64,000 nucleotides of DNA from Solirubrobacterales bacterium (GCA_036494495.1 DASXOF010000133.1:3315-67314), one strand, 5' to 3'. Shown: positions 11,435-19,789, numbered from the stretch's first letter. Numbers and translations are program-made. The notes: generated by a model from the sequence alone, not told the origin.

Positions 11435-12796
11435 TCAACCTGACTCCGCCGTCACTGCAAGTCGCTCCCCGGCGAGCTCCGGCAGCAGCGGCTGCAGGAC
11501 CCGGTTGGCGGTCAGCCCGAGGCAGCCGAGGTTGGCGAACCCCGGCCCCTGGCTGAGGCCGCCGAGGCCGGGGATGTGAAGTCGCGGCGAGAGGCCGCGC
11601 AGCTCCAGCGCCCGGCCGATCGGGACCTCGGTCCCCGGCGGCGTGTCCCAGACCTGACCGGCCTCGCGCTCGACCACGGCCCGGACCTCGTCGGAGAAGA
11701 GGCTGCGCAGCTGCGCCAGCAGGTCGAAGCCGGTGCAGTTGACGACGTAGTCGAACTCGGCCGCCACCACCCCGCCCGGCGCCTCGTACTCGAGGCTGAG
11801 CGCCTCACCGCTCGCGGCGAGGCCGGCGTGGAGGGCGCGGCCGACCTCGAACGAGGAGTGCCCGTCGCCCGACAGCGAGGCGATCACGCCGGCGTCGAAG
11901 ACGCCGCGGTCGGCGTGCTTGACGAAGTCGCGGCGGGCCTGCTGGTCGAGCCGTTCCCAGCTGACGTCGTCGGGGTCGGCGAAGACCCGGTTCTCGAGGA
12001 AGCTCTCGCCGCGGCTCATCGGCAGGAGCGGCGTGAAGACGGTGAGACTTGCGAGCGGCCGGAAGGCGCGGAGGAAGACGAGGGCGCTGAGGGCGCTCTC
12101 GCCGCCGCCGAGGATCGCGATCTCGACCTCCTCGTCCTCGGCGATGCCGGCGAACTCCGAGCGGCGGCTGTCGCAGTGGAAGAGCCGCGGCGCCGCCGCC
12201 GGGTCGTGCGGCAGGGCGCGGTGGACGCCCGGGCCGGTCAGCAGCAGGGCGCCGCCGACGTGGCGCTCGGGGTCGTCGGGCTGGCCGCGCTCGGTCACCG
12301 CGATCGCCCAACGCTCGGGGTCGTCTTCGATCGTCACCGACTCGACCCGGCCGTGCAGCAGCCGCACCCCCTCGGTTGCGCGCTCGAGCACCCAGCTCAG
12401 ATAGGCGCCGTAGTCGCGGTGGCGGACCGAGGGCGCGCCGGAGTTGACCCAGCCGGCGTACTCGCCGCGTTCGATCGCGTAGCGCTGCCAGCTGAACGGC
12501 AGGAGCGCCGCGTCGATCGCGTCGCCGGCGGCGCCGAACTGCCGGTAGCTGCGGTACGGGAAGCCGACGTCCTTGATCGGCGGGATCGCCAGCGGCTCCT
12601 CGCCGGAGGTCATCCCGTTGCGGCCGAGCCAGGACGCGGCGGGCTCGGTTTTCTCGACGATCGTCAGCGTCAGCTGGCCGAGGCCGAGCCGGTTGACGAC
12701 GTGGACCTTGGCGGCGATCGCCGCCGCCTTGGCGCCGGCGCCGACAATCAGGAGGTCGGCTTCCGGCGGCGCCTCCGTCTGGCTTGCGGTGCTCAT
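11435..12796 (-). CDS. FAD/NAD(P)-binding monooxygenase (lysine/ornithine N-monooxygenase-like, tentative)
   Basis: Two dinucleotide-fold motifs are present (LLIVGAGAKAAA and IAILGGGESALSA). ATG 12796 overlaps the P450 stop (ATGA). Confidence 0.6.
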   Translation of the reverse strand: MSTASQTEAPPEADLLIVGAGAKAAAIAAKVHVVNRLGLGQLTLTIVEKTEPAASWLGRNGMTSGEEPLAIPPIKDVGFPYRSYRQFGAAGDAIDAALLPFSWQRYAIERGEYAGWVNSGAPSVRHRDYGAYLSWVLERATEGVRLLHGRVESVTIEDDPERWAIAVTERGQPDDPERHVGGALLLTGPGVHRALPHDPAAAPRLFHCDSRRSEFAGIAEDEEVEIAILGGGESALSALVFLRAFRPLASLTVFTPLLPMSRGESFLENRVFADPDDVSWERLDQQARRDFVKHADRGVFDAGVIASLSGDGHSSFEVGRALHAGLAASGEALSLEYEAPGGVVAAEFDYVVNCTGFDLLAQLRSLFSDEVRAVVEREAGQVWDTPPGTEVPIGRALELRGLSPRLHIPGLGGLSQGPGFANLGCLGLTANRVLQPLLPELAGERLAVTAESG

Positions 12797-14085
12797 CAGG
12801 CGACCGGTTCGGCGATCACCAGGCCGCGCCTGGCGGGCGCGAAGGAGATCGCGGATTTCTTGATCGCCTCGCCGCGCCGCTCGGCCGGTTCGAGGCGGAC
12901 GCTCGCGAGCACCGTGCGGATCACCCGCTTCATCTCCATTTCCGCGTAGGAGGCGGCGAGGCAGCGGCGGACGCCGCCGCCGAAGGGGATCCAGGTGTAG
13001 GTGCCGGGCGGCGTCGCGAGGAAGCGCTCGGGGAGGAAGCGGAGCGGTTCGGCATAGTTCGCCGGGTCGCGGTGGACGAGGTGGATGCAGGGCGCGACCG
13101 TGGTCCCCGCCGGCAGCTCGCGGCCGGCCAGCCGCAGCGGCGCCAGCAGCCGGCGGACCACCACCGGCACCGGCGGCCGCAGCCGCAGCGTCTCCTTGAT
13201 CACCGCGTCGAGGTAGGCGTCGCCCTCGCCCGCCAGCACCTCCTCGCGGGTCCGGGCGAGCACGTCGGGGTTGCGCAGCAGCCGCTCGAAGGCCCAGGCG
13301 AGGGTGCTCGAGGTCGGGCCGTCGGAGAGCAGCGTCACCAGTTCGTCGCGCAGGTCGCGCTCGCTCATCGGCGAGCCGTCCTCGTAGCGGGCGCGGACCA
13401 GCATCGAGACCACGTCGCGGGGCTCCTCCTCGGGCTCGGCGCGGCGGCGGCGCGCCTCGGCGATCACCGCTTCCTCGACCGGCCGCATCGCCTCCCGGTA
13501 GCCGCGGCTGCGGGTCATCGCGCCGGGGCCGAAGGCGGCGAGCAGGGCGAGGTTGCGGGGGCTGTTGAGCCAGGCGGTGAGGCGGCGCAGGCGCTCGCGC
13601 AGGCCGTCGAGGCGGCGGTTCTCGCCGGAGCCGAAGACCGCCCGCATCACCACCTCCTGGGTGATCTCCTGCATCCGCGGCCAGAGCTCGAACGGCTCCC
13701 CCACCGGCCAGCGCTCGACTTCCTGCCGCGCCACCGTCGCCATCATCTCGGCGTCGGCCTGGACCGCGCCGCCGTGGAAGGAGGGCAGCATCAGCTTGCG
13801 CCGCTGCAGGTGCTCGGGTTCTTCCATCAGCATCACCGAGCGCGGGCCGAGGACCGGCCCCAGCAGCGGGTTGGCGAGGTCGACGCCGACCGCCTCGCCG
13901 GCGGTGAAGACGGCTTTGACGTCGGCCGGGTCGCTGAGGATCACCCAGTCGCCCCAGTGCATGATCCGCAGCGTGAAGGCGTCGCCGTACCGCCTGTGGC
14001 AGCGCTCCAGATAGGGCAGCGGCCGTTGCGTCCAGGCGACCGCCTGCATCGCCCGCGGCAGCCGCGGGCCGGGTGGCATGCTCAC
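12796..14085 (-). CDS. cytochrome P450
   Basis: The heme-thiolate loop is FGGGVRRCLAASYA and the ExxR motif is in KETLRLRPP. GTG 14085 overlaps the upstream stop; the alternative start is ATG 14079. Confidence 0.9.
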   Translation of the reverse strand: MSMPPGPRLPRAMQAVAWTQRPLPYLERCHRRYGDAFTLRIMHWGDWVILSDPADVKAVFTAGEAVGVDLANPLLGPVLGPRSVMLMEEPEHLQRRKLMLPSFHGGAVQADAEMMATVARQEVERWPVGEPFELWPRMQEITQEVVMRAVFGSGENRRLDGLRERLRRLTAWLNSPRNLALLAAFGPGAMTRSRGYREAMRPVEEAVIAEARRRRAEPEEEPRDVVSMLVRARYEDGSPMSERDLRDELVTLLSDGPTSSTLAWAFERLLRNPDVLARTREEVLAGEGDAYLDAVIKETLRLRPPVPVVVRRLLAPLRLAGRELPAGTTVAPCIHLVHRDPANYAEPLRFLPERFLATPPGTYTWIPFGGGVRRCLAASYAEMEMKRVIRTVLASVRLEPAERRGEAIKKSAISFAPARRGLVIAEPVA

Positions 14086-14405
14086 GCCGCCCGCTCCCGG
14101 CCCAGCCGGCGTTCGCGCTCGAGCCGGTCCATCAGCTCGTCCTCGGCCCGGCAGGTGGCGGCGATCAGCAGCTCGAAGAGGTTGGCGGTGAAGTCCGCCG
14201 GCAGCTCGACCGCGGCGCCGCGGTCGAGGTAGCGCCGGCGCACGACCTCGACCCGGTCGGGCTGCATCATCGCGATCTCGTGCTCGCTCTTGTAGACGGC
14301 GACTTCGCGGCAGATCTGGAAGCGCTCGCCGAGCAGGCGGGCGACCTCCTCGTCGATCACGTCGAGGCGGTCGCGGAACGGCTGCAGGCCGCCGGTCTCG
14401 CTCAT
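14082..14405 (-). CDS. AroQ-class chorismate mutase-like protein (candidate 4-amino-4-deoxychorismate mutase)
   Basis: The 107-aa product reads MSETGGLQPFRDRLDVIDEEVARLLGERFQICREVAVYKSEH...QPDRVEVV. ATG 14405 overlaps the upstream stop. Confidence 0.75.
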   Translation of the reverse strand: MSETGGLQPFRDRLDVIDEEVARLLGERFQICREVAVYKSEHEIAMMQPDRVEVVRRRYLDRGAAVELPADFTANLFELLIAATCRAEDELMDRLERERRLGRERAA

Positions 14406-19693: not shown

Positions 19694-19716
19694 CCCCCAA
19701 GGGCTCCGCTCGGAGA

Positions 19717-19789
19717 TGCACCGGCCGGGGCTCGAACCCGGATCTACGGCTTACAACGCCGTCCCTTTAACCGATTAAGGCACCGGTGC
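19717..19789 (-). tRNA. tRNA-Thr (anticodon UGU), 73 nt, CCA not encoded
   Basis: I folded the cloverleaf manually. The acceptor stem is GCACCGG/CCGGTGC and the D arm is CCTT-AATCGGTTA-AAGG. The anticodon arm is ACGGC-GTTGTAA-GCCGT. The T arm is CCGGG-TTCGAGC-CCCGG and the discriminator is A. Confidence 0.8.

Follow-up and report, generated by a model that had tools for sequence, protein, structure and literature searches.

What is a transfer RNA gene doing at the head of an operon that joins a paralog of arginyl-tRNA synthetase (ArgRS) to aminodeoxychorismate chemistry? The question is raised by positions 11,435 to 19,789 of a 64,000-nucleotide stretch of DNA (herein referred to as the window) from Solirubrobacterales bacterium (GCA_036494495.1 DASXOF010000133.1:3315-67314). 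The host is a soil actinobacterium, and the window, with a G+C content of 72%, lies on contig C133 of a 3.37-Mb genome that is 95% complete and that its protein matches assign to the Solirubrobacterales. A tRNA gene is followed here by genes for the ArgRS paralog (herein ArgL), a fused PabA-PabB synthase of 4-amino-4-deoxychorismate (ADC) (herein PabAB), a GNAT N-acetyltransferase, an HDAC-fold deacetylase, a protein of chorismate-mutase (CM) fold (AroQ), a cytochrome P450 and an NbtG-like flavin N-hydroxylase (NMO), with a PQQ-type lipoprotein gene last (table 1). We find that the tRNA is a dedicated partner of ArgL. Our best reading, which draws on genetic linkage, structure, pocket changes and the gene set of a Conexibacter relative, is that ArgL and this private tRNA load an ADC-derived aromatic amino acid.

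A Dedicated tRNA Accompanies ArgL

The cassette tRNA belongs to a single family with a class-I body of about 73 nt, found in about 50 cassette-bearing loci from Solirubrobacterales, and it adjoins ArgL in nearly all of them, even where other genes have been rearranged; in eight loci it lies between AroQ and P450 on the opposite strand and is still within the cassette. Its body is unlike those of the host tRNA-Thr, tRNA-Arg and type-II tRNA-Leu. Across the family alignment the acceptor pairs G1-C72, C2-G71, A3-U70, C4-G69 and C5-G68 are invariant, the D-stem is unusual (CCUU/AAGG), G18G19 is present, the variable loop has 4 nt, the T-loop reads UUCGAGC and position 73 is mostly A. The anticodon loop is canonical (7 nt, with U33 and A37 invariant), and compensatory changes are seen at 11 of the 21 pairs, the anticodon stem co-varying as well.

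The anticodon itself is lineage-specific: from genome to genome, ARAGORN labels the tRNA Thr(UGU), "Leu"(UAA), Thr(AGU) or Arg(CCU), and the cognate codons are very rare where they were counted (TTA, ACA and ACT). Indeed, of the 970,650 codons of the host genome, TTA accounts for 47 and ACA for 190, fewer than any other sense codon. On the ArgL tree the anticodon has switched at least four times within the main clade (UAA to UGU at least twice, UAA to AGU twice), with CCU in the outgroup; UAA, which is also found in the outgroup, looks like the ancestral state from its placement on this tree. Even a single GTDB genus holds both a UGU-type genome (G156) and UAA-type genomes (G195 and G204). The host also encodes a canonical tRNA-Thr(UGU) with a different body, on contig C167, and a canonical tRNA-Leu(UAA), and the latter is kept in four of five UAA-type genomes. 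Because these canonical decoders coexist with the special tRNA, exclusive codon reassignment is ruled out.

Since one tRNA family is linked to ArgL at nearly every locus and carries a lineage-specific, rare-codon anticodon, we conclude that the tRNA is the dedicated partner of ArgL, an extra copy beside the canonical tRNAs and no incidental leader. The sequence-only reading of this DNA, which had treated the tRNA as a leader of the operon, missed this role.

A more distant arrangement occurs in Conexibacter and relatives (loci L060, L061 and L062, at about 9600-14300), where a tRNA(UCU) whose D-stem has the normal GCUC/GAGC form stands before an ArgL-like gene, and the latter is followed by two methyltransferase genes and an ATP-grasp gene. 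AGA is common there (30-66 codons per locus) and the rare-codon rule fails. This tRNA may be an ordinary tRNA-Arg, and possibly a hint to the origin of the tRNA/ArgL pair.

ArgL Retains the ArgRS Architecture with a Changed Pocket

ArgL stays below the cut-off (261.65 bits) of the argS model TIGR00456 (table 1), against which the canonical argS of the host, on contig C110, scores 417.9 bits. The presence of that gene on another contig bears out the proposal that ArgL is a true paralog, and rules out ArgL as the housekeeping ArgRS. The AlphaFold (AF2) model of ArgL (pLDDT 87, pTM 0.90) has full-length ArgRS structures as its top Foldseek matches (template modeling [TM] score 0.65-0.71 over about 580 columns), including the yeast ArgRS-tRNA complex 1f7u (TM 0.71); CysRS/MshC (TM about 0.45) and MetRS are far weaker matches. 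Because the whole ArgRS architecture is retained, ArgL looks, on this model, like a tRNA-charging enzyme with a new amino acid pocket rather than a tRNA-free condensing ligase. The earlier suggestion of a condensation with or without tRNA is accordingly narrowed, the tRNA-free alternative being unlikely for the same reason.

We compared ArgL residues with 13 canonical ArgRS sequences and the yeast sequence. ArgL keeps N153 (yeast numbering), an invariant HIGH motif and the catalytic Asp residues, and has KSS at the place of MSTR/KMSKS. An Asn of the N-terminal domain is gone, as are most of the residues that canonical enzymes conserve in their C-terminal (anticodon) domain, and recognition of the tRNA by ArgL appears to be independent of the anticodon. 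The pocket departs from yeast ArgRS at E148 (Y, Q or N in the PabAB clade), Y347 (Q), T349 (M), D351 (A or S) and Q375, where ArgL has a W that is invariant across the 51 orthologs compared; the ArgL positions Q321, M323, A/S325 and W348 are invariant within the PabAB clade. From the yeast structures, E148, Y347, D351 and Q375 are residues that we take to hold arginine; within the arginine-binding set of E148, N153, Y347, D351 and Q375, solely N153 is kept in ArgL. The replacement of two acidic residues by a neutral, partly aromatic pocket would speak against arginine as the substrate, and we infer that the pocket suits an aromatic side chain.

The second ArgRS-like gene of the host genome lies on contig C169 (C169:16681-23044; locus L093 4682-11045). 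It encodes another ArgL paralog, 36% identical to the cassette ArgL, which stands head-to-head with a truncated LeuRS-like protein bearing an editing domain and is followed by the alpha and beta subunits of a D-lysine 5,6-aminomutase, with no adjacent tRNA. In its pocket residues this paralog is similar to the Conexibacter ArgL described below.

Chorismate Chemistry and the Conexibacter Version

By family membership, PabAB is a PabB-type ADC synthase: it scores 365.7 bits against the pabB model TIGR00553 (cut-off 328.4) and carries the PabB-type catalytic-lysine motif PIKGT (as RPIKGT). The best NCBIfam model for AroQ is the CM-like TIGR01803, and residues 6-92 align with residues 6-92 of E. 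coli CM (1ecm), so that the numbering is equal. Among 46 orthologs R11, R28, K39 and R51 of E. coli CM are invariant, and Q48, V52 and E88 are invariant or nearly so. The pocket therefore appears, to judge from aligned residues, to be remodeled on the side which, in E. coli CM, is turned toward the C4 substituent, and AroQ is a candidate 4-amino-4-deoxychorismate mutase, although sequence alone does not separate a mutase from a pyruvate-lyase. With the TIGR00553 score, the PIKGT motif and the CM_2 fold, the earlier identification of an ADC synthase and an AroQ enzyme as the first half of a PapA/PapB-type route to p-aminophenylalanine is supported.

That reading had also remarked on the lack of PapC, nonribosomal peptide synthetase (NRPS), polyketide synthase (PKS) and ATP-grasp genes. 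This holds for the window, where no gene for a PapC-type dehydrogenase, NRPS, PKS or ATP-grasp enzyme was found. The distant Conexibacter version, by contrast, does have a PapC-like gene, and an aminotransferase gene besides. This locus (L058) combines the same tRNA family (UAA) and an ArgL at 35% identity with a class-IV aminotransferase, a prephenate-dehydrogenase-like gene, an AroQ-VOC fusion, an LDH-like gene and PabAB. By predicted function, its gene set is that of a full p-aminophenylalanine-type route beside a tRNA/aminoacyl-tRNA synthetase pair. In the host of the window, a single TyrA-like gene lies elsewhere in the genome.

The host also encodes other chorismate-using enzymes: TrpE in the trp operon, one more chorismate-binding enzyme and, on contig C143, a second fused PabAB. 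The last stands at C143:12274-18042 (locus L095 8275-14043) beside an AMP-binding enzyme, a 79-aa open reading frame that is a possible carrier protein and a double alpha/beta-hydrolase, and two Aminotran_4 (PabC/IlvE-like) genes are also found on this contig; the C143 locus may serve another pathway that uses p-aminobenzoate or the folate branch. With this second PabAB, the PabC-like genes and the occurrence of the cassette in only 13 of 201 genomes, we rejected the cassette PabAB as the housekeeping folate enzyme.

Distribution and Synteny of the Cassette

Synteny was compared by tblastn with the eight cassette proteins across 61 loci from species genomes, and two more loci came from assemblies; genes in these relatives were called with our own simple caller, based on G+C at third codon positions (GC3), and their boundaries are approximate. 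Throughout the main clade (50-92% ArgL identity), all loci of sufficient length contain ArgL, PabAB, GNAT and AroQ. The core common to all versions is tRNA, ArgL, PabAB and AroQ, with GNAT present throughout the main clade and missing from the Conexibacter version. The HDAC-fold gene was not found in at least six full-length cassettes; P450 is usually present, sometimes divergent upstream of the tRNA, sometimes missing; and NMO and PQQ, which co-occur in most loci, are missing in about a third. The gene set is thus syntenic in dozens of genomes, which refutes chance adjacency, the outcome that would have undone the sequence-only reading; of its seven-gene unit, what stands is a conserved cassette in which only the tRNA, ArgL, PabAB and AroQ are universal, while HDAC, P450, NMO and PQQ come and go. 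In the long-read metagenome-assembled genome of locus L063 the cassette aligns in fragments with several apparent frameshifts, and we left this locus out of the codon tests.

An ArgL ortholog was found in 13 of 201 sampled genomes and in 5 of the 67 genera of the order. Given this patchy spread and the canonical argS and second PabAB in the host genome, the cassette is an accessory trait and not a housekeeping one. The wider ArgL family is large: metagenomes hold more than 2,000 homologs, with 193 representatives at 50% clustering (E<=1e-30, full-length alignment down to about 30% identity). Elsewhere its members neighbor NMO alone, an aminotransferase and a methyltransferase, two methyltransferases and an ATP-grasp enzyme, or lysine 5,6-aminomutase. 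Because they adjoin such varied amino-acid-modifying genes, the family looks, from gene neighborhoods, like a set of synthetases for non-standard amino acids.

A Possible Carrier or Donor in a Small-Molecule Pathway

What the aminoacyl-tRNA is for can be approached through the genes that accompany the core. The GNAT protein has the acetyl-CoA motif R-S-R-G-I-G-A, and its weak NCBIfam and PDB matches are N-acetyltransferases of amino-acid-like compounds; the HDAC-fold protein is closest in the PDB to acetylpolyamine amidohydrolases (101 bits); and NMO matches the L-Lys monooxygenase 4d7e (NbtG, lysine N6-hydroxylase type) over its full length (208 bits, E 1.8e-60). Such predicted activities would be typical of small-molecule tailoring. 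Two specific pathways that NMO brings to mind were rejected: a siderophore or hydroxamate route (NMO with GNAT), as NMO is no core gene, and a hydrazine synthetase (NMO with an aminoacyl-tRNA-synthetase-like enzyme), as no cupin domain occurs in any cassette protein and NMO is missing from many cassettes.

We hypothesize, and tentatively favor, that the aminoacyl-tRNA serves as a carrier or donor in a small-molecule pathway, on account of the tailoring enzymes, the patchy distribution, the lack of programmed sites among those covered and the hopping anticodon. PabAB, by its family membership, would make ADC, which the AroQ enzyme would rearrange; a dehydrogenase and a transaminase of the host or the cluster would then yield a p-aminophenylalanine-type amino acid, as the Conexibacter version suggests, and ArgL would attach this acid, or one closely derived from it, by an ester bond to the tRNA whose gene lies 23 nt upstream. 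The product could be an activated, carrier-bound intermediate that the P450, NMO and the GNAT/deacetylase pair tailor and protect, following the logic of carrier-bound p-aminophenylalanine in chloramphenicol biosynthesis with a tRNA replacing the NRPS carrier. Selection would hold the anticodon on the host's rarest sense codon, so that any leaked odd aminoacyl-tRNA would do little harm in translation.

Several observations weigh against this proposal. No known aminoacyl-tRNA-consuming enzyme is conserved in the cassette; the cyclodipeptide synthase (CDPS) and FemAB models (PF16715 and PF02388) have no match in the 95%-complete genome, which has solely an unlinked MprF/LysX-like gene of this sort. 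The absence of a PapC-type dehydrogenase from the window counts on the same side, as do the pocket residues of the Conexibacter ArgL, which differ from those of the main clade and resemble those of the paralog beside the lysine aminomutase. Moreover, a pure carrier has no obvious need of a fully canonical anticodon loop on a stem kept by compensatory changes, and the identity of the amino acid is inferred from gene context only.

Codon Usage and Possible Contact with the Ribosome

The canonical decoding loop leads to a second explanation, possible though rather unlikely in our estimate, in which ribosomes would incorporate the ArgL-charged amino acid at a sense codon of very low frequency (ACA here; TTA, ACT or AGG elsewhere), where the canonical isoacceptor competes for the same codon, and the cassette would be a natural counterpart of the pyl system. 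The layout of tRNA, synthetase and amino acid biosynthesis genes is that of pyl, the conserved core holds no enzyme that consumes aminoacyl-tRNA, and the decoding features of the anticodon loop are invariant, with the anticodon hopping between rare codons only. Against it, canonical tRNAs for the cognate codons coexist, and hopping between Leu, Thr and Arg codons would scramble programmed sites.

Codon usage provides evidence on both sides. Expressed as ACA/Thr relative to GCA, CCA and TCA, the ACA ratio is 0.07-0.33 in UGU-type genomes (0.19 in this genome, 0.16 and 0.31 in two UGU clades, 0.07 and 0.33 in the same-genus genomes G192 and G201) versus 0.49-1.25 in UAA-type clades and 0.50-0.75 in three cassette-free relatives, a selective depletion of the cognate codon that is to be read with the small codon counts and the relatedness of the genomes in mind. 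Within one genus, the UGU-type genome G156 has an ACA ratio of 0.27 and a TTA ratio of 0.037, and the UAA-type G204 has 0.52 and 0.005 (Fisher p = 0.0015 for ACA and 0.037 for TTA). However, genome G040 (loci L127, L128 and L137), which has neither an ArgL ortholog nor the special tRNA, matches the UGU-type genomes in its scarcity of ACA (ratio 0.09). The cassette is thus not required for ACA avoidance, which weakens depletion as proof of decoding.

The residues that face the cognate codons are similarly divided. ACA stands opposite an ortholog's Thr at 23-28% of sites in UGU-type genomes (6 of 26 in the count by genome type), compared with 99 of 232 and 12 of 22 (43-55%) in the other types (p = 0.06 for one comparison); for ACT the figure is about 55%. 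In conserved columns, cognate TTA coincides with Leu in none of four cases versus eight of eight for non-cognate TTA, and cognate ACA matches the standard residue in 7 of 14, versus 69-100% for non-cognate rare codons. Two anecdotal sites are aromatic: in L054 a TTA stands where PabAB otherwise has an invariant Phe, and in L047 an ACT falls on a position of ArgL that is invariably aromatic. On the other side, ACA occurs at a conserved Thr of ArgL in three genomes, the 17 alignable ACA sites of the host genome face varied residues, none of them aromatic, and the operon itself contains no ACA codon. Across genomes, no defined site keeps a cognate codon: we found no conserved programmed recoding site in the cassette genes, the flanks or the 17 alignable ACA sites, the relatives being partial genomes.

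In L054, PabAB has TTA at codons 42 and 488, one of which is the otherwise invariant Phe. A PabAB column that is usually Ser (TCG) has ACA in one UGU-type clade (L011, L013, L016 and L017, codon 38/42) and TTA in the UAA-type L054; each is its genome's cognate rare codon, and each is two mutations from TCG.

Two further possibilities did not hold. A Codetta-style test of whether the cognate codon stands for an aromatic residue gave no overall support, the aligned residues being S, E, R, P, A, T and F/Y. Nor are the cassette genes enriched in cognate codons, as autoregulation might have made them: about 30 of 58 hits fall in these genes, which make up about 55-60% of the called codons. We conclude that there is good evidence for selection on the anticodon through translation, and that the codon data give no evidence of programmed recoding. 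The explicit form of the ribosomal explanation, a natural expansion of the code in which a p-aminophenylalanine-type residue is placed at the rarest sense codon, the assignment hops among TTA, ACA and ACT, and the codon is purged from constrained sites, is in our judgment as doubtful as the general one.

Other Explanations for the ArgL/tRNA Pair

ArgL could instead act as an MshC-like ligase, with the tRNA a mere activation cofactor: the enzyme would pass its amino acid to an amine acceptor, for example an ADC-derived amine, with GNAT and the deacetylase in MshD- and MshB-like roles. Amino acid activation by ArgRS-type enzymes requires tRNA, as this explanation would have it. MshC is, moreover, among the weaker fold matches of ArgL. 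The trio of deacetylase, synthetase-like enzyme and GNAT also parallels MshB, MshC and MshD of mycothiol synthesis (PMC9437257). We nevertheless consider it improbable, since ArgL fits full-length ArgRS far better than CysRS/MshC, the deacetylase is missing in several cassettes and GNAT in the Conexibacter version, and the selection of rare-codon anticodons is unexplained if the tRNA is never charged.

Less probable still is deliberate mistranslation of the ProRSx/tRNAProX type, in which ArgL would charge a standard amino acid onto a tRNA whose anticodon is foreign to it, and the biosynthetic genes would lie nearby without being related to the pair. Such systems are typically recognized by a synthetase paralog next to an anomalous tRNA whose sense anticodon varies with lineage, but here the pocket for arginine has been taken apart, the association of PabAB and AroQ with ArgL and the tRNA survives rearrangements and persists down to 35% ArgL identity, and the junctions are translationally coupled. 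Finally, it is very improbable that cluster and tRNA are both ordinary and merely adjacent (the tRNA being a housekeeping decoder of a rare codon or the integration site of an island, and ArgL acting without it), for although tRNA genes often flank accessory gene clusters and L060-L062 offer an ArgL-like gene after a normal-D-stem tRNA(UCU) with AGA common, the cassette tRNA has a distinct family body, a 73-nt class-I UAA tRNA cannot be a normal type-II tRNA-Leu, the tRNA stays in the cassette even on the opposite strand between AroQ and P450, and no integrase was found among the flanking genes scanned, flanks that are conserved in close relatives only.

Operon Layout and Flanking Features

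Gene calls and profile matches confirmed the tRNA and the seven minus-strand coding sequences, with the positions and families given by the sequence-only reading (table 1).

Table 1. Features of the cassette and its upstream region, in the order of transcription (positions in the window).
Feature	Position	Strand	Evidence or remark
Intergenic region	19790..20028	-	239 nt; between ABC-transporter ATPase gene (ends 20029) and tRNA
tRNA, class I, anticodon UGU (codon ACA)	19717..19789	-	ARAGORN; Rfam RF00005, 65 bits
ArgL, ArgRS paralog	18008..19693	-	PF00750 (tRNA-synt_1d), 25 bits; TIGR00456, 84.5 bits
PabAB, fused PabA-PabB ADC synthase	15852..18011	-	GATase, Anth_synt_I_N, Chorismate_bind
GNAT N-acetyltransferase	15382..15855	-	Acetyltransf_1, 57 bits
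HDAC-fold deacetylase	14402..15385	-	PF00850 (Hist_deacetyl), 132 bits
AroQ, chorismate-mutase fold	14082..14405	-	PF01817 (CM_2), 62.6 bits
Cytochrome P450	12796..14085	-	PF00067, 186 bits
NMO, NbtG-like flavin N-hydroxylase	11435..12796	-	Lys_Orn_oxgnase
PQQ-type beta-propeller lipoprotein, last gene	9850..11415	-	PF01011/PF13360; lipobox LAFAAGC

The gap between the tRNA and the ArgL start codon (19693) is 23 nt. A 4-nt overlap had been proposed for every junction: read directly, five junctions do overlap by 4 nt, as ATGA or GTGA (18008-18011, 15852-15855, 15382-15385, 14402-14405 and 14082-14085), and the P450/NMO junction is TGATG, with a 1-nt overlap at 12796. As proposed, the lipoprotein gene follows NMO after 19 nt with a strong Shine-Dalgarno sequence (GGAGGA), and its product has a lipobox. 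Near-identical sequence recurs at four junctions (15846-15864, 15376-15394, 14396-14414 and 14076-14094), GGCGGCGGC(G/A)TGAGC, such that the upstream proteins end in Ala-Ala(-Ala) and the downstream proteins start with Val/Met-Ser; it may be a reused coupling signal. No terminator-like site was found on the minus strand within the operon. The 239-nt region upstream of the tRNA is presumed to contain the promoter, and no sigma-70 consensus was found in it. The flanking ABC transporter, NUDIX, RDD, Usp and TetR genes were rejected as parts of the system, being syntenic in the closest clade only.

A second odd cassette occurs in the same genome on contig C117 (C117:26570-29168; locus L094 8571-11169). 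Its tRNA, 75 nt long and of class I, is no real type-II tRNA-Ser although the anticodon is ACU, for the rare codon AGT; behind it come a clavaminate-synthase/VioC-like Fe/2OG hydroxylase and an archaeal-type AspRS-like class II synthetase. Its predicted gene functions suggest a hydroxylated Asp/Asn-type amino acid with its own tRNA; homologs of the synthetase in another genus (44-48% identity) have no tRNA within 1.5 kb.

Comparison with Known Systems

The literature that we searched does not describe any ArgRS-like enzyme that has a tRNA of its own, or any tRNA-linked p-aminophenylalanine cassette; it likewise yielded nothing relevant on dedicated tRNAs within gene clusters, on tRNAs of Solirubrobacterales or on natural expansion of sense codons, and a 2026 review of aminoacyl-tRNA-dependent natural-product enzymes makes no mention of ArgRS, arginyl, dedicated, anticodon or tRNA gene. 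Within that literature, the claim that this combination is undescribed stands, now for a conserved cassette.

Several systems put synthetase paralogs or aminoacyl-tRNAs to use outside translation, as may be the case here, namely VlmL/VlmA, SbzA, MshC and the MetRS-like hydrazine synthetases, and the staphylococcal cell-wall tRNA-Gly used by Fem enzymes is a tRNA devoted to a non-ribosomal task. However, these systems employ housekeeping tRNAs or keep a normal anticodon, and none of them pairs an ArgRS-derived enzyme with a private tRNA; the cupin, Fem, CDPS and PEARL partners of known aminoacyl-tRNA-dependent systems are all absent here. With the PapA/B/C and chloramphenicol (CmlB/D/C) pathways the cassette shares an ADC synthase and an AroQ-fold enzyme, here a candidate mutase, to which the Conexibacter relative adds a PapC-like dehydrogenase, and the later C or N oxidation and N-acylation predicted here recall CmlA, CmlI and N-acyl chloramphenicol analogs. 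The known Pap and Cml pathways load the amino acid on an NRPS carrier, whereas here there is no NRPS and a tRNA/synthetase pair is in that place; likewise the N-oxygenase is of the flavin NbtG type, unlike the di-iron enzyme of chloramphenicol biosynthesis, and the window is without PapC.

The closest layouts are found in translation. The pyl cassette (pylT-pylS-pylBCD) likewise unites a dedicated tRNA, its own synthetase and enzymes for a non-canonical amino acid in one locus, and to our knowledge pyrrolysine is so far the only case in nature of a dedicated tRNA/synthetase pair linked to synthesis of its own amino acid. It differs in its class II enzyme, stop-codon (CUA) anticodon and programmed in-frame UAG sites, where the present cassette has a class I ArgRS derivative, a lineage-variable sense anticodon and coexisting canonical isoacceptors, and programmed sites were not found. 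ProRSx/tRNAProX of Streptomyces is similar in that a synthetase paralog is co-encoded with an anomalous tRNA of strain-variable sense anticodon, and we know of no other synthetase paralogs with anticodon-variable tRNAs than those of such proline mistranslation. ProRSx (2021, PNAS; 2023, JBC) reportedly still uses proline and has no amino acid biosynthesis genes attached, whereas ArgL is without the arginine pocket and built into an ADC/p-aminophenylalanine-type operon.

Should the aminoacyl-tRNA prove to serve a small-molecule pathway, the cassette would represent a new way to build natural products on a private tRNA carrier; should it serve the ribosome, it would be nature's equivalent of the engineered "21-amino-acid bacterium". 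In both cases it would offer synthetic biology a naturally evolved, probably orthogonal class I synthetase/tRNA pair, and it presents a testable instance of the co-evolution of a tRNA anticodon with genome codon usage. The cassette combines features of pyl and of ProRSx/tRNAProX with new parts, namely an ArgRS-derived enzyme, a putative aromatic amino acid derived from chorismate and an anticodon that follows whichever sense codon is rarest.

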